A stretch of DNA of 64,000 nucleotides, taken from NCBI GenBank assembly GCA_964465185.1, contig CAYXKX010000001.1:16585-80584 (forward strand), read 5' to 3'. Positions within the stretch are counted from its first letter, which is position 1. Every line of letters begins with the position of its first letter. This document shows, in pieces, positions 44,372 through 50,624 of this stretch. Source of the stretch: an uncultured Chitinophagaceae bacterium. Lineage in GTDB: Bacteria; Bacteroidota; Bacteroidia; Chitinophagales; JADJOU01. The translations under genes were made by a program, and so were the position numbers. A model generated the notes under the pieces. It was given only the letters and a program-made list of their open reading frames with translations, was not told the origin of the DNA and made no database searches.

Positions 44372-44692
44372 TTATTTTTTACGCATGGAAATGGCATATT
44401 CCGAAACGGCAACTATTTCTTCTGGGGTTAACAAGTTTTTATAGGGCGCCATAGCGCCTTTCCCATTCGTCACCTGGTGGACAATCTGGTCTATGCTCAA
44501 GCTGGATGCGGTTATATCCTTTGCACCACCAAAACCCATTTTGCCATCAATGCCATGACACGAGGTACATCGCTCTATATAGATGGTTTTGCCATCTGGT
44601 TTCAAGGAGGCCTCTTCTTTTTTCTCCAGTTTACAAGAGTGGATTAAAAACAAAGTAGCTGTCAAAAAGACAGCATTAGTTGGTAATTTCAT
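44372..44692 (-). CDS. Class I c-type cytochrome (lipoprotein-anchored)
   Basis: Heme-binding CTSCHG and a distal Met (GKGAMAPY). I chose the ATG at 44692, which gives the lipoprotein signal MKLPTNAVFLTATLFLIHSC. The longer track ORF overlaps the upstream gene extensively. Confidence 0.8.
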   Translation of the reverse strand: MKLPTNAVFLTATLFLIHSCKLEKKEEASLKPDGKTIYIERCTSCHGIDGKMGFGGAKDITASSLSIDQIVHQVTNGKGAMAPYKNLLTPEEIVAVSEYAISMRKK

Positions 44693-45518
44693 ATTGCGTA
44701 TGTTGGCTTTTGTATAAAACATTGATATAATACTCATGAATTTGTCTGTTATATATCTCAACTTTGCTGGTATTAAGTGCAATTCTTCCCTCATTGAGGG
44801 CCACAATTTTCAAAATATTCTTGCCTGCTTGCGGAAGAACTTTAAAAACCACTTTCTCATCTGTTAGTAGAAAGTTGTCTATTACAACGTTTTCATTAAA
44901 CACGATTTGCACCCTGTCTCCATCTACTTTTTGGTTATCATAGATTTTTAGATAGAGCGTATCAGCTCCTGCGTTAATTTCCACCTTATCATTTTCGCGA
45001 ACTTGAATGAAATTAGCTTCTTTTTTTATTTTTTGACTTAGCAAATTAGTCAAAATAGCTTCTTCATCTTTTTCTGACAACTTAATTGGTTTTTTCTCCT
45101 CTTTAGGATATAGATTAAACTTAAAATCACGACAGATGACATTTATGTGACCCGAAGGGCAGTTTTGAGAATCTAAACTTTTAAATATACCGGCGATGGT
45201 ATAAATATTTTCTAAAAGAAAATAGACCTTTCCTTGAAAAAATATGGCACAGTCTGATTTGCTTCGGGCATATTCTCGCAAGTAAATTGTTTTATCTTCC
45301 GGGTTGAAATCTCCCGTGATCATGTGATTAACTGTCTTATTATTTTCATCTCTACTTAGGTTTCCTGTCACTTGGTAGCTAGAGTCAATGCTGATTTGAA
45401 CTTCACAGTTTAGGTTTTTCTTGTCTGAATACATGATAGAACCTTGAAAATCATTTTTCTGTCCAAGTAGCAACTGTCCTATAGCTAAACCCAACAATAA
45501 TGAAATAATTTTTTTCAT
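44676..45518 (-). CDS. Hypothetical secreted protein (280 aa)
   Basis: Signal peptide MKKIISLLLGLAIGQLLLGQ. No recognisable motif. The 3' end overlaps the cytochrome c start by 17 nt. Confidence 0.55.
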   Translation of the reverse strand: MKKIISLLLGLAIGQLLLGQKNDFQGSIMYSDKKNLNCEVQISIDSSYQVTGNLSRDENNKTVNHMITGDFNPEDKTIYLREYARSKSDCAIFFQGKVYFLLENIYTIAGIFKSLDSQNCPSGHINVICRDFKFNLYPKEEKKPIKLSEKDEEAILTNLLSQKIKKEANFIQVRENDKVEINAGADTLYLKIYDNQKVDGDRVQIVFNENVVIDNFLLTDEKVVFKVLPQAGKNILKIVALNEGRIALNTSKVEIYNRQIHEYYINVLYKSQHTQYEITN

Positions 45519-46404: not shown

Positions 46405-46637
46405 TTAACTAATGCGATTTTTGAATGATAAAATTTAATAATACTTCGTCTGCGAAAGTAATATAGAAAAAGTAAAAACTCCGGAATACATCTTGTTTAA
46501 AGATTCATAGATAAAATATTCGCTTGATAATTATTTATTATTTTTGTAATGGGTGTTATCGTTGGCTTCTTTATCAAGAAGCAAAATCTAGATAGCTATG
46601 GTATTATTTCATATAACTTAAACCAAAACACAAGAAT

Positions 46638-48134
46638 ATGAAGTTAGGATTATTTTTTAGCCATGCCTGGAACGACAAGGCTGGAGACAGAGTTAAAAAA
46701 CTACTAAATCATTTACAAATAAGCTACGATGTCTGGTTAGATAAGAAAAGAATTCCTATCGGCGATGTTATAAATGATGAGGTATATAAAGGGATATCTG
46801 ATTGCGATATTTTTGTTAATATTTGGAGTAAAAATGCGGCTAACAGTGAAGGCGTTCGATTTGAAATCAAGGCTGCGCAGCAACTTAAGAAGCCATTTTT
46901 GATTTTAAAAATTGACGAAGAATCCATAGAAACTAATGAATACTTAAAAGGGCGGGAGTTTATCGATTTTAATTTTGATGATGTCAGGTTTGAAGAACAA
47001 TATGTGTTTTTAGACAATCATTTAATGAGATTGCAAATTGCTAAATTGGTCCAAAATAATCTTATAGAGGGTAACAGTGACGAGTTAATAGGTTTAGATC
47101 AAAAGAGAGATCAGGTCAAAGACGTTTTAGACGAACTAGAAGACTATCAAAAACGCCGTTCATTAGGCGCTAATGGCAACGATAGCAGTGATACCTATAT
47201 TCAGTCTAGCTTGTCAAAGGGCATGCAACTGGCGGCCAATGACCCCATATTATCTCAATTCATGCAAGGTTTAAGCGATATTTCAAAGGCACATCCAAAA
47301 AAAAGCGAGGATGCCTTAAAGCAAAAGTTAACAATAGATCTAATAGACAAAATAGACCCGCAAGGTGTTCATCCATATCTGGCGATAATGAAAAAGGAAA
47401 TGCTTAAACGGCCAGAAAGTTTAATAACAACTAATACTCAAAAAATAGATGAGCAAAAAGTTATGAAGGTTTTTCAAATGAAAATTAGAGAATTAGAAAA
47501 CCAAAAACACGCAGAAGACAAAAAAAATAAAGGAGAAAACCTTTTTTGGAATTTATTGACAGGCATAAAAGATCTGGGCATTGATTTACTTAACAGCTAT
47601 ATTACAGATAGTCCCAAACTATTACTTAAAATGCATCAAGGGGCCAGTGAGGTAAACGAACCTCGCTTGTTTAATTTACTGTCCATAGTTATTCGATATA
47701 TTCAAATGGAGAAGGAGCAAAAAACCTCAACCACGCGCGCACTTTATGATTATTTACCGGAGTCATTTTTAATCAACAACACAGCAAGGCTTCTCATAAA
47801 AGCCGGAGTTTTTAAAGAAAATACATTGGATTATAGCTTTGCAAGTTCAGCAGGAATTGATAAAATTATGTTACCCTTTTTTGATGGAGCCAAGAAGGAA
47901 AAAATTGAAAACTTTATACGACATGTAGAAGAAAACTATAATATCAAAGATTCAAATTTAGATTGGTTAAAAATAGCAGCGGGGTTAATTGTTGTTCCTG
48001 CCTTATTGGGAGGATTATCAGATGGGTCATCCGATAATTCCGATGGATCGTCTTCTCTTCTTGGAGGAGGATCATTCGAAGATAAAATGGCATCTGCGGG
48101 GTTAGATGCGAATTTTAAGATCAATTATGATTAG
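46638..48134 (+). CDS. TIR-domain protein with uncharacterised helical region, C-terminal transmembrane tail anchor and S/G/D-rich tail
   Basis: Residues 1-125 carry TIR hallmarks: LFFSHAWND, DVWLDKKRIPIGD, CDIFVNIWSKNAANSEGVRFE (candidate catalytic Glu-76) and KPFLILKID. A hydrophobic helix WLKIAAGLIVVPALLGGL lies at 47964..48017, followed by the tail SDGSSDNSDGSSSLLGGGS. Confidence 0.8.
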   Translation: MKLGLFFSHAWNDKAGDRVKKLLNHLQISYDVWLDKKRIPIGDVINDEVYKGISDCDIFVNIWSKNAANSEGVRFEIKAAQQLKKPFLILKIDEESIETNEYLKGREFIDFNFDDVRFEEQYVFLDNHLMRLQIAKLVQNNLIEGNSDELIGLDQKRDQVKDVLDELEDYQKRRSLGANGNDSSDTYIQSSLSKGMQLAANDPILSQFMQGLSDISKAHPKKSEDALKQKLTIDLIDKIDPQGVHPYLAIMKKEMLKRPESLITTNTQKIDEQKVMKVFQMKIRELENQKHAEDKKNKGENLFWNLLTGIKDLGIDLLNSYITDSPKLLLKMHQGASEVNEPRLFNLLSIVIRYIQMEKEQKTSTTRALYDYLPESFLINNTARLLIKAGVFKENTLDYSFASSAGIDKIMLPFFDGAKKEKIENFIRHVEENYNIKDSNLDWLKIAAGLIVVPALLGGLSDGSSDNSDGSSSLLGGGSFEDKMASAGLDANFKINYD

Positions 48135-48175
48135 CCACAACGACAATAAGGCACTAATGGCGCCTAATTAACTTA

Positions 48176-48293
48176 AATTTTCTCCCATTGTTGGTTCTTA
48201 TTGACCAACAAAAATTCTATGAGTTAGGTTTGTTGGTGAAAAACACCAACAATGGGAAAAAAATAGGAAAAAAGAAATTTGACCAACAAAAAA
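48176..48293. repeat. Nested inverted repeats built from a CCAACAA/TTGTTGG core between the TIR gene and recQ
   Basis: The outer arms TCCCATTGTTGGT (48183..48195) and ACCAACAATGGGA (48245..48257) are exact reverse complements. So are the inner arms ACCAACAAA (48204..48212) and TTTGTTGGT (48229..48237). The direct repeat TTGACCAACAAAAA occurs at 48201 and 48279. Confidence 0.8.
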
Positions 48294-48294
48294 C

Positions 48295-50511
48295 CTACAT
48301 CAAATTTTCCCCAATAAACTGCAACTTAACCAAACGAATATCATCTTCAGGTAAATCGTCGTCTAAGAAGTTTTCGTAACATTCTTTGATATTGCCCGTT
48401 TCGTTTTTTTGAAAAAATTCCATCATTTCATCGATGACTTCATCGTCAAGGATTTCTTTTAAATAGTATCTGATGTTGAGTTTGGTGCCGTTGAGGACTA
48501 TAGACTCCAGTTCATCTACAAGATTTGTAAATTTCAAACCGAGTTCTTTTGAAATCGTTTCTAAAGAGATTTTTTTATCTATAGCTGCTATGATTTTTAC
48601 CTTGTCACTGCTTTTATTGACTATGGTTTTGACCATGACATCATCTGGACGCATGATGTCATTTTCTTCTACATAGTCGGCTATAACCGTACAGAAGGAT
48701 TTGGCATACTTGGCCGCCATGGCCTTGGTGACACCGGTTATGTTTCCAAATTCTTCTTCATTAACAGGATATTTCAAGCACATTTCTTCTAGAGAAGGTG
48801 CTTGAATAATCACATATGGAGGCTTGTTGGCTTTTTTTGCTTCTATTTTTCGTACATCCAATAGTATGTTATACAGCTCCTTATCCATTGTGGATGTGTT
48901 GTTGCCAGCCAATACGATATCTCCCTCGGTTTCATAATTATGATTTAGAGAAATATGAATAGGATAGTTCTTTTTGATATAATCAAAGCCCTTTTTTGTC
49001 AGTTTAAGGGTTCCATATTCTTCGACCTCTCTATATACCAAACCATGAATAATTGTTGTTCGCAAAACAGAAGTCCAATAGTGTTCGTTTTTATCACTGC
49101 CTTTGCCGAAAAAAGGCATTTGGTCGTGTTTGTAGGACAATACCCCGTCAGATTTTATTCCCATGGCAATATTCATAATATGGGGCAAATAATGTGATTC
49201 AAGGCTTGAATTTATAATATTAAGTGATAGGGAAATGTCTTCGGTGACGTCAACTTTTTCTTTTGGATTGACACAGTTGTCGCACATTAGAGATTCAGTA
49301 CAAATTTTACTATCATATTCCTCTCCAAAATAATTTAGCAAATATTTCCTTCTACATTCTCCAGATTCAATGTAGGCAACCGTTTCGTCTATGAGTAGCA
49401 TGCCTCTTTCTCTTTCGGTCACGGTCTTGTCGCTTAGCATTTTTTCTACTTTATGGATGTCTTTGTAGTTAAAATAGGCGATACAGTTTCCTTCGAGCCC
49501 GTCTCTCCCGGCTCTCCCTGTTTCCTGATAGTAATTCTCTAGAGATTTGGCGATATTATAGTGAATGACAAATCGAATATCGGGCTTATCTATCCCCATG
49601 CCGAAGGCTACGGTAGCCACAATGACATGAATATCTTCTGCTAAAAACTCATCTTGGGTATTGGCTCTTAGTTTTGCTTCTAGACCTGCATGATAGGGCG
49701 CCGCTTTAATACCATTTAAACAGAGCGTTTCTGCTATTTTCTCCGCAGATTTTCTATTAAGTACATAGACAATACCAGATTTTCCTTCCTGGTTTTTAAT
49801 GTATTGGATAATATTTTTTACCGCCCAATCATCGTTGATTTTATATCGGATCTCATAGTATAAGTTTGGTCTATTGAAGGAGGATATGAAAAGATCGTAT
49901 TCTTTTAAGCCTAGGTTTTTGACTATATCTGTTTGTACTTTGGGTGTAGCGGTTGCCGTCAAAGCCATAATTGGCACTTTGTAAGGAATTTTTTTAATCG
50001 CGTCTTTTATTTTTCGATACTCAGGACGAAAGTCGTGTCCCCATTCAGAGATACAATGTGCTTCGTCGATAGCGACAAAAGAGATCTTAAATGCCTTCAA
50101 AAACTCTATATTATCTGGTTTGGCCAATGTTTCTGGGGCAATATAGAGGAGCTTGGTCCTACCTTCTATCACTTCTTTTTCTACTGCTCTTTTTTGTCCT
50201 ACATTGAGTGTACTATTATAGAAATGCGCTACGTTTTCATTTTCATTGTAGTTTCTTACTAGGTCTACTTGGTTTTTCATCAATGCAATGAGAGGCGAGA
50301 TGATAACAGCTGTTCCTTCGGAAATAATACCGGGCAATTGGTAGCACAATGACTTTCCTCCACCTGTTGGCATAAGCACGAAAGTATCCCTACCAGAGAG
50401 AATGGACTCTATGATTTTTTCTTGCTCACCTTTGAACGTATTGAATCCAAAATTCTTTTGGAGTAGTTCGGATAAGCTGGATTGAGAAATACTATTCGGC
50501 GCCACAAGCAT
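48295..50511 (-). CDS. recQ: ATP-dependent DNA helicase RecQ
   Basis: Motifs FGFNTFKGEQE, MPTGGGKSLCYQ, DEAHCISEWGHDFRPEY and the RQC zinc region (C..C..C..C), with an HRDC-type C-terminal region. ATG at 50511; a TTG lies one codon upstream. Confidence 0.95.
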   Translation of the reverse strand: MLVAPNSISQSSLSELLQKNFGFNTFKGEQEKIIESILSGRDTFVLMPTGGGKSLCYQLPGIISEGTAVIISPLIALMKNQVDLVRNYNENENVAHFYNSTLNVGQKRAVEKEVIEGRTKLLYIAPETLAKPDNIEFLKAFKISFVAIDEAHCISEWGHDFRPEYRKIKDAIKKIPYKVPIMALTATATPKVQTDIVKNLGLKEYDLFISSFNRPNLYYEIRYKINDDWAVKNIIQYIKNQEGKSGIVYVLNRKSAEKIAETLCLNGIKAAPYHAGLEAKLRANTQDEFLAEDIHVIVATVAFGMGIDKPDIRFVIHYNIAKSLENYYQETGRAGRDGLEGNCIAYFNYKDIHKVEKMLSDKTVTERERGMLLIDETVAYIESGECRRKYLLNYFGEEYDSKICTESLMCDNCVNPKEKVDVTEDISLSLNIINSSLESHYLPHIMNIAMGIKSDGVLSYKHDQMPFFGKGSDKNEHYWTSVLRTTIIHGLVYREVEEYGTLKLTKKGFDYIKKNYPIHISLNHNYETEGDIVLAGNNTSTMDKELYNILLDVRKIEAKKANKPPYVIIQAPSLEEMCLKYPVNEEEFGNITGVTKAMAAKYAKSFCTVIADYVEENDIMRPDDVMVKTIVNKSSDKVKIIAAIDKKISLETISKELGLKFTNLVDELESIVLNGTKLNIRYYLKEILDDEVIDEMMEFFQKNETGNIKECYENFLDDDLPEDDIRLVKLQFIGENLM

Positions 50512-50624
50512 CAAATTTTGAGACTAAAGATAATATTTTTTTAACAAGTGATAGAAAAATTAAAATCCTCAAAAAAAATTGGTTCTAGTATTTTGCAGTC
50601 AAATAAATTCTGTTAGAAATCAAG

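Follow-up and report, generated by a model that had tools for sequence, protein, structure and literature searches.

The stretch of DNA analyzed here (the window) comprises 64,000 nucleotides from an uncultured Chitinophagaceae bacterium. The gene at 46638..48134 is real and encodes a very rare bacterial TIR protein. A glutamate that is invariant in the family occupies the catalytic position of its N-terminal TIR domain. The TIR domain is followed by a helical body that is undescribed in Pfam, NCBIfam, PADLOC, PDB and BFVD. The protein therefore combines a known superfamily, TIR, with a new regulatory body, and is one of many uncharacterized bacterial TIR architectures. We propose tentatively, at a little short of an even chance, that it is a single-protein TIR NADase that is gated by oligomerization and has a role in conflict.

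46638..48134, + strand: complete TIR-family gene, stop codon included (open reading frame listing, sequence and 18 full-length homologue clusters with a conserved N-terminus)

The open reading frame (ORF) starts with ATG and its product has 498 residues. Each of its 18 homologue clusters can be aligned to it from end to end, with identities of 36-44%. In the family alignment of 19 sequences, the N-terminus M-x-L-K-L-F-[FY]-SHAW is kept and about 90 columns are invariant. The match to Pfam TIR_2 (E=2.3e-17) and the full-length homologues with their conserved N-terminus indicate that this is no chance ORF. An earlier reading of the window, made from the sequence only, had placed the gene and its main elements correctly, including Glu-76, the W443-L460 segment, the 38-residue tail and the flanking gaps of 233 and 160 bp.

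A TIR domain with a conserved glutamate

46638..46982, + strand: TIR domain, residues 1-115 (Pfam TIR_2, predicted fold and Foldseek)
46863..46865, + strand: GAA codon of Glu-76, the putative catalytic glutamate (invariance and alignments to known TIRs)

The TIR head proposed in the sequence-only reading is a genuine domain, as indicated by a Pfam match, a confident predicted fold and a Foldseek list led by TIR proteins. Pfam TIR_2 (PF13676) matches residues 6-114 with 64 bits against a cut-off of 28. In an AlphaFold2 (AF2) model based on the 19-sequence family alignment, residues 1-115 have a predicted local distance difference test (pLDDT) score of 85-92, and strands alternate with helices. 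A Foldseek search of the PDB returned only TIR-fold proteins and fold relatives, with about 134 columns aligned. SPARTA TIR-APAZ chains came first (24-26% identity), followed by the TIR domains of SARM1, AbTir, MyD88 and TLR2. The fold relatives included DNPH1, BcmB and nucleoside deoxyribosyltransferases. The target-normalized template modeling (TM) scores for the TIR head are at most 0.74 and the probability is 1.00, with E-values of just ~1e-3. When PDB sequences were searched with the family profile, SPARTA TIR-APAZ, AbTir and PdTIR were the best matches, at E ~4e-4.

Every one of the 19 family members has Glu-76, as do 7 of 7 distant relatives. In the profile search, the family motif S-x-G-V-x-F-E76-L is aligned to E-G-V-L-K-E77-L of SPARTA TIR-APAZ. 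In single-sequence alignments, Glu-76 falls on the glutamate of the PdTIR 'KEL' and of the AbTir 'YEL' motifs. These residues and SPARTA E77 are known to be the catalytic glutamates. Glu-76 is thus both invariant and at the catalytic position, as the sequence-only reading had claimed; that reading had named the TIR fold and the conservation of Glu-76 as points open to refutation, and both held. Judged from its sequence, the TIR head bears the hallmarks of an enzymatic (NADase-type) TIR and probably cleaves NAD.

Scans with Pfam, PADLOC and NCBIfam models also gave sub-threshold matches to ThsB-type, retron TIR and Argonaute-associated TIR models, all far from the cut-offs and confined to the TIR core. 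The ThsB-type model PF08937 reaches 13.1 bits where 21.2 are required, and PADLOC ThsB gives E=6e-5. The NCBIfam model for Thoeris type III ThcB4 reaches 21.8 bits, compared to a cut-off of 220. The PADLOC model for Argonaute-associated TIRs (Aga_TIR) covers just residues 30-112. PADLOC and NCBIfam yielded nothing beyond such sub-threshold matches in the TIR head, in agreement with the earlier statement that the protein belongs to no named system.

The ThsB-type matches (PF08937, PADLOC ThsB and ThcB4) suggest an alternative, in which the protein would be a ThsB-like signaling TIR whose product activates an effector encoded elsewhere. TIR domains are able to make cyclic ADP-ribose (cADPR) isomers or His-ADPR. 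However, these matches are weak, lie below the cut-offs and reflect the generic TIR core only. In addition, no ThsA-like SIR2/SLOG or Macro gene adjoins the TIR gene here or in the relatives examined; in known signaling systems, sensor and effector are encoded in one operon. We regard signaling to a distant effector as very improbable.

An undescribed helical body

46980..47165, + strand: two long post-TIR helices, residues ~115-176 (AF2 helices 115-143 and 147-176, invariant columns)
47175..47198, + strand: invariant loop G180-N181-D182-x-S184-x-x-Y187, hallmark of the 'middle module' (family alignment)
47235..47405, + strand: three-helix unit, residues ~200-256 (AF2 helices 203-218, 222-239 and 246-256)
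47550..47942, + strand: C-terminal helical core, residues ~305-435 (invariant columns, profile-profile alignment)

For residues ~115-498, scans of Pfam, NCBIfam and PADLOC gave no match at E<=1. The AF2 model of the body is all-helical, at moderate-to-low confidence. When the body-only model was compared to the PDB with Foldseek, the best match had E=0.22 and only designed helical repeats were returned. In BFVD, the best match had E=0.096 at a TM score of 0.12, and none was credible. The sequence-only reading had described a helical body that it could not recognize, and both points agree with these results. It had also called the body free of motifs. No known family is present, but the body does contain several invariant motifs and is part of a wider superfamily linked to TIR domains.

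The two post-TIR helices end in the conserved sequence L164-x3-E168-D169-x3-R173, and this region is kept in distant relatives. They are a candidate coiled coil or oligomerization stalk. The G180-N181-D182 loop that follows reappears as GxSGNxxSxxY in distant relatives with high GC content. Its pLDDT is below 50, suggesting that it is probably flexible or part of an interface. The three-helix unit is the best-confidence part of the body in the AF2 model, with conserved F208, I215, P220, K228, D240-P241 and L248. This unit is duplicated in tandem in variants of about 590 residues (P0004, P0009 and P0010) and also in P0021. Profile self-comparison detected no internal repeats in the family. The C-terminal core holds the invariant Y321-x-T323-x-x-P326 and, at 47751-47807, the motif I379-N-N-x-x-R384-L-L, which resembles DUF1232 and is invariant in the family.

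Coupling of the body to a TIR domain in a wider superfamily

When a profile of the body alone was used for an exhaustive HMMER search, just 38 representatives emerged from 1.84 billion proteins, five of them at E<=1e-30. Among the longer distant matches, 10 were checked and all 10 carry an N-terminal TIR_2 domain. Every body relative with an intact N-terminus has a TIR domain, which argues that head and body are functionally linked.

Profile-profile alignment of the window family with a group from contigs of 55-70% GC gave E=1.4e-48 over 380 columns. The two groups share the TIR domain, the stalk, the GxSGNxxSxxY loop and a DDxxK…IDP unit. The alignment reaches into the C-terminal core, where 'YMPYAYLINNTARLL' is paired with 'GLLDDAYLVH' of soluble relatives. 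In one relative (P0041), the region homologous to this core matches Pfam DUF1232 with 26 bits against a cut-off of 23. The window protein itself has no match to DUF1232 (YkvA, PF06803) at E<=1. Its YxYLINNTARLL core aligns with 'D-L-x-P-D…G-x-L-G-L-L-D-D-A-Y-L' of the relatives, but the Asp-Asp pair of DUF1232/YkvA is replaced by Asn-Asn in the window family. As judged from these alignments, the DUF1232 homology is real at the profile level. DUF1232 is uncharacterized in the searchable literature, where no link to defense was found. Since the family has no known function, the homology adds no mechanism.

The C-terminal ends of the superfamily are modular. Members of the branch nearest the window family (P0026, P0027, P0028, P0030 and P0034) have a hydrophobic helix, a Gly/Ser linker and a FEDxxA peptide. 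The end is soluble in the high-GC branch. In P0031 and P0044, the C-terminal domain is unrelated to the rest of the superfamily. Such interchangeable ends are typical of sensor-effector proteins in conflict systems.

Two soluble members, 46% identical to each other, each precede a homologous gene for a protein of about 150 residues, and the two copies of this gene are 56% identical. It encodes a helical protein on the same strand, and its sites are L011:5432-5905, L012:2060-2533 and L019:4330-4773. Pfam does not recognize its product, and the gene is found neither in the window nor at any Bacteroidota locus. The soluble high-GC branch together with this gene may be a two-gene version of the system.

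Two further members of the superfamily have unusual arrangements. In the metagenomic P0038 (331 residues), the C-terminal tail …SWERYKEDEITKISSENGLSLS of one member runs into the TIR head of another. This arrangement would imply tandem paralogues in some genome, or a read-through gene call. P0031 lies on a 3.4-kb contig (JGI 3300075153) with a KilA-N domain gene on its 3' side, and its alternative C-terminal domain is non-helical. The KilA-N gene is the only phage or mobile hint seen in the whole superfamily.

Hydrophobic helix, linker and C-terminal peptide

47964..48017, + strand: marginally hydrophobic helix W443-L460, possible C-terminal membrane anchor (hydropathy, invariant columns)
48018..48071, + strand: variable Gly/Ser/Asp-rich linker, residues 461-478 (family alignment, pLDDT <35)
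48072..48131, + strand: conserved C-terminal peptide [YS]-F-E481-D482-x-M484-A485-x-x-G488 … Y497 (invariant columns)

Residues 443-461 form the sole hydrophobic maximum in the protein and are followed by 37-38 residues to the C-terminus. For W443-L460, the KD19 value is 1.76 and the simple Hessa sum is +4.1 kcal/mol, and a proline is located at the center. The family ranges are 1.4-2.0 and +4 to +8 kcal/mol, respectively. The uncharged core measures 16 residues in the window protein and 12 residues in most members; an example of the 12-residue core is AAAAVIGVVLVA, after which a conserved Asp or Glu is found. The helix begins with the invariant residues W443, A447 and A448 (W443-x3-A447-A448), and AF2 confidence is low here. 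The mean charges of the flanks are +0.8 on the N-terminal and -2.7 on the C-terminal side, consistent with an anchor that has its N-terminal side in and its C-terminal side out.

The linker differs among family members in both length and sequence. The peptide at the C-terminus is conserved. Soluble relatives without the hydrophobic helix still end in WEDEMAR..AELG.S, suggesting that the peptide may act in the same compartment as the body. The sequence-only reading had proposed a tail anchor followed by a Ser/Gly/Asp-rich tail. A single hydrophobic segment is indeed present near the C-terminus; the 12-residue core of most members and the retention of the peptide in soluble relatives leave the anchor uncertain. 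The tail has 38 residues and includes a Gly/Ser/Asp linker as described, but it ends in a FEDxMA-type peptide that is conserved throughout the family. Taken from sequence, a C-terminal membrane anchor is plausible, if unproven.

A more elaborate proposal builds on these elements. The protein would be the first case of a new, self-sufficient TIR immune sensor-effector that is tethered to the membrane. A short conserved (Y)FEDxMA..G peptide outside the cytoplasm would sense what happens at the envelope, for instance a phage adsorbing or injecting, and would control the cytoplasmic TIR NADase through the single C-terminal transmembrane helix. The protein would follow the logic of Toll-like receptors in a bacterium, with the topology inverted. 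The middle module (GxSGNxxSxxY and DDxxK…IDP) would then be a new, phylum-spanning domain for TIR gating with interchangeable C-terminal sensors. We consider this proposal improbable.

Comparison with characterized TIR systems

In its proposed mechanism, the window protein comes closest to SPARTA TIR-APAZ, SARM1 and the single-protein TIR systems of E. coli. The best solved match in both sequence and structure is SPARTA TIR-APAZ (PDB 8i87, 8oz6, 8z92 and 8ifk), at 24-26% identity over about 134 residues. In both proteins the TIR domain is N-terminal, and S-x-GV-x-F-E76 corresponds to E-GVLK-E77. The SPARTA NADase is turned on by oligomerization, and this is the mechanism that we propose for the window protein. 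Unlike SPARTA, the window protein has an all-helical body in place of APAZ and no Argonaute neighbor. SPARTA has neither the hydrophobic C-terminal helix nor the terminal peptide of the window protein.

In SARM1, a TIR NADase and a helical regulatory region reside in one polypeptide and activity is gated through self-association. SARM1 (ARM, SAM and TIR) resembles the window protein in having a TIR domain and a helical region in one chain, and its TIR domain is among the structural matches. However, the order is reversed, as the TIR domain is N-terminal in the window protein, and no homology to ARM or SAM was detected. The resemblance is therefore an analogy only. AbTir, PdTIR and TcpB-type proteins likewise combine a catalytic-Glu TIR with long, possibly multimerizing helices, and the weak matches to them span the catalytic position. 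In contrast to the window protein, their coiled coil precedes the TIR domain. They are much shorter and do not have the middle module, the DUF1232-like core, the hydrophobic helix or the terminal peptide.

Stand-alone TIR proteins have been tested in E. coli, where 12 of 32 cloned TIR loci protect against phage and four of the nine new systems are single proteins (PMC11350192). The TIR catalytic residue is needed in all 12 protective loci, and one system includes a transmembrane segment (PMC11350192). The single-protein systems TIR-II, V, VI and IX, compared by description, are similar to the window protein in that they stand alone and have TIR as the sole recognizable domain. The E. coli systems are from Proteobacteria and are located partly on mobile elements or phages. 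In contrast, the window family is found only in Bacteroidota-like genomes, where its surroundings are housekeeping genes, and its members share a large conserved helical body.

Membership in several known systems was rejected. For SPARTA, the alignments end after about 134 columns, no APAZ is present in the helical body and the flanking genes encode TerC and RecQ, with no Argonaute. For Thoeris, ThsB models are sub-threshold, and no ThsA (SIR2-SLOG or TM-Macro) is found in the flanks or among the listed neighbor families. For CBASS and Pycsar effectors, Pfam and PADLOC detected no SAVED, STING or cNMP-binding domain, and no cyclase is present among the neighbors examined. PsyrTA/RqlHI, which pairs a DprA-like antitoxin with a co-transcribed helicase toxin of the RecQ type, was rejected as well. 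PsyrA is DprA-like according to the literature, the window protein has no match to it, and recQ is convergent with the TIR gene and encodes the full domain set.

The similarity to SPARTA and the adjoining recQ suggest that the protein could be a degenerate or orphan relative of a known TIR system, either SPARTA without Argonaute or a PsyrTA/RqlHI-like pair with RecQ. The nearest solved TIRs, those of SPARTA TIR-APAZ, are likewise N-terminal, and a window protein, presumably RecQ, matches PADLOC PsyrT. Against this, the TIR-APAZ alignments stop at the end of the TIR head, the rest of the protein is all-helical, Aga_TIR is matched only by residues 30-112 and no Argonaute gene adjoins. As to the pair with RecQ, the window protein matched no PADLOC model of PsyrA, which is DprA-like. 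recQ lies behind a strong hairpin, and its product is complete by Pfam (DEAD, Helicase_C, Zn-binding, RQC and HRDC). In addition, RecQ is a neighbor of no other family member. The orphan alternative is largely refuted and we give it hardly any weight.

Distribution and genomic context

At 90% identity, the 5.8 billion proteins searched contain 19 clusters of the family. A scan of 185,579 species genomes found four loci, all in metagenome-assembled genomes (MAGs) of Chitinophagaceae. Four further full-length loci were found in 241 million metagenome records. These scans use peptide patterns, so the locus counts are lower bounds. An all-against-all BLAST of neighbors across loci found none that is common to lineages at or below 60% identity. 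The family occurs sporadically and very rarely, in contexts that change from lineage to lineage, indicating that it is accessory and not core.

As stated in the sequence-only reading, the gene stands alone. It is separated by 233 bp from the divergent terC (46405-46637) and by 160 bp from the convergent recQ (48135-48294); both neighbors were identified with Pfam. The surrounding genes of the window encode an S9 peptidase, DUF805, cytochrome c, TerC, RecQ, TsaB, ArsR and UvrA. Among the best 25 of 96 models matched in a window-wide PADLOC search, only helicase models were found, and none for Ago, ThsA, cyclase or STING. The lack of a partner gene noted earlier thus agrees with the TerC/RecQ flanks, the absence of shared neighbors and these PADLOC matches. 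The helicase scores of window proteins are 2.8e-184 for DpdF, 1e-116 for RTasHel, 1.6e-101 for PsyrT and 1.4e-107 for GajB. These matches are most likely to the housekeeping RecQ (48295-50514) and UvrD.

PADLOC was also applied to 68 neighbors from about 10 contexts and gave generic matches only (dCMP deaminase, MotB-like, cold-shock and helix-turn-helix proteins). Of the 89 Pfam families matched by these 68 neighbors, the 25 listed are metabolic. The sample of contexts is small for judging association with defense islands. Within it, homologues do not behave as a syntenic core gene, and they show no enrichment near defense or mobile genes. The refuting condition that the sequence-only reading had set, strict synteny with no such enrichment, thus has a mixed outcome.

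One locus has a different setting. At L004:11574-14775 (OY970254.1, a Chitinophagaceae MAG chromosome), an isolated phage-type tail sheath gene (504 residues) is found by the TIR gene. The same region contains genes for a dCMP deaminase, a T4 gp19-like tail tube protein and a methyltransferase; of these, the syntenic L005 has the deaminase only. The difference points either to genes gained or lost locally or to a piece of a prophage or contractile-injection module.

In this locus, the TIR gene is convergent with the tail sheath gene and near the tail tube gene, which suggests that the protein could be a delivered or interbacterial NADase toxin, such as one loaded into a contractile injection system. 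However, L005 and all other contexts lack the sheath and tube genes, and no conserved immunity gene is adjacent. Pfam detected no signal peptide, type IX secretion system C-terminal domain or other delivery domain in the window protein, and its TIR domain starts at residue 3. We judge a delivered toxin extremely unlikely.

Flanking DNA

46405..46637, no strand assigned: divergent intergenic region shared with terC (read from sequence)
48149..48267, no strand assigned: small GC-rich hairpin (48149-48165) and long hairpin (core 48182-48258) between the TIR gene and recQ (RNA fold)

Upstream of the TIR gene, TATTTTTG at 46539-46546 is a candidate -7 box of the Bacteroidetes type. An 18-bp palindrome with 7-bp arms, GCTTCTT-TATC-AAGAAGC, is found at 46565-46582 and could be an operator or a hairpin in the 5' untranslated region. 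A scan for sigma-70-type promoters is uninformative for an organism of this kind.

The sequence-only reading had pointed to structure in the 160 bp downstream, and this region folds strongly as RNA (-42 kcal/mol, z=-5.2). A terminator-like site is located on the minus strand at 48165..48149. The hairpin has no second copy in the window, and its Rfam matches are limited to sub-threshold noise from miRNA models. The hairpins are probably a bidirectional terminator between the convergent genes. The sequence 'TTGACCAACAAAAA' occurs twice near the downstream hairpin.

Farther upstream, the minus strand carries an ORF of 280 residues at 44676-45518, with terC on one side and the cytochrome c gene on the other. 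The N-terminus of its product resembles a signal sequence, and the ORF has no counterpart in Pfam. With its 3' end it runs into the long version of the cytochrome c gene that is called from a TTG start (44372-44806).

Proposed mechanism and alternatives

In the mechanism that we propose, the protein is a self-contained TIR enzyme that would most likely be always present yet normally inactive. The short hydrophobic helix may keep it at the inner membrane. By analogy with characterized enzymatic TIRs, the helical body, possibly with the tethered terminal peptide, would separate the TIR heads until a trigger arrives. The trigger would cause self-association through the long helices or through the hydrophobic helix, which is rich in small residues. 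Pairing of the TIR heads would create composite active sites that cleave NAD+, leading either to its depletion or to a product derived from ADP-ribose. The expected outcome would be growth arrest or abortive infection. The proposal is favored by the confident TIR fold, the invariant Glu-76, the strict coupling of body and TIR domain, the interchangeable C-terminal ends, the sporadic distribution, the lack of a conserved partner in the Bacteroidota branch and the charges that flank the hydrophobic helix; the protective E. coli loci provide a precedent. Enzymatic activity, gating, membrane association and a role in conflict are inferred.

Several observations weigh against this proposal. The body was modeled with low confidence, with a predicted TM score (pTM) of 0.37 for the full model and, for the body alone, a pTM of 0.44 and a pLDDT of 57.8; a model of this quality gives no view of how the TIR domain is gated. 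Most members have a hydrophobic segment that falls short of the length expected for a confident membrane-spanning helix. The remaining points concern the role in conflict. The GC content of the gene (34.9%) is close to that of the window (36.2%). No copies were found on viral contigs (IMG/VR), plasmids (PLSDB) or phages (INPHARED). About 12 independent contexts are all housekeeping, with no recognized defense system, integrase or transposase. In close species, the gene occupies the same site: the TIR proteins are 87% identical between L002 and L003 and 86% between L004 and L005, and syntenic neighbors in these pairs are 86-96% identical, a comparable divergence. This synteny and neighbor-like divergence look like stable vertical inheritance. 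The earlier suggestion of a defense module thus finds no backing in the genomic contexts or in the plasmid, phage and viral collections. A defense role of the window protein is plausible, if unproven.

The same observations favor a non-immune chromosomal role. The membrane-associated TIR could carry out stress-triggered NAD or nucleotide signaling or turnover, or it could be a pure interaction TIR on a DUF1232-like body. Every context examined is housekeeping or metabolic, the gene is syntenic and diverges like its neighbors in sister species, and signs of mobility are absent. The DUF1232/YkvA-like core also belongs to a family unlinked to defense in the literature found. On the other hand, the rarity and patchiness of the protein (four loci in 185,579 genomes and 38 body representatives in 1.84 billion proteins) argue against general physiology, and the strict conservation of the catalytic glutamate argues against the scaffold version. 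To our knowledge, essentially all characterized bacterial TIR enzymes act in conflict, either defense or virulence, which also counts against a non-immune role. We consider such a role the main alternative, although somewhat unlikely.

Implications

TIR domains are an enzymatic core common to bacterial, plant and animal immunity, and the systems differ in how the TIR domain is held off and switched on. In the superfamily described here, the body is always coupled to a catalytic-Glu TIR and is conserved from low-GC Bacteroidota to high-GC bacteria, while the C-terminal ends vary. The middle module, its conservation across phyla and the conserved tethered peptide make the protein a clean candidate for a new mode of TIR gating. 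If it is active as a one-gene system, it would represent a new gating mechanism, possibly with a membrane-coupled trigger. Such activity would also extend experimentally grounded TIR biology to Bacteroidota, in which few defense systems have been tested. A housekeeping role would instead make it one of the rare bacterial TIR enzymes that act outside conflict.

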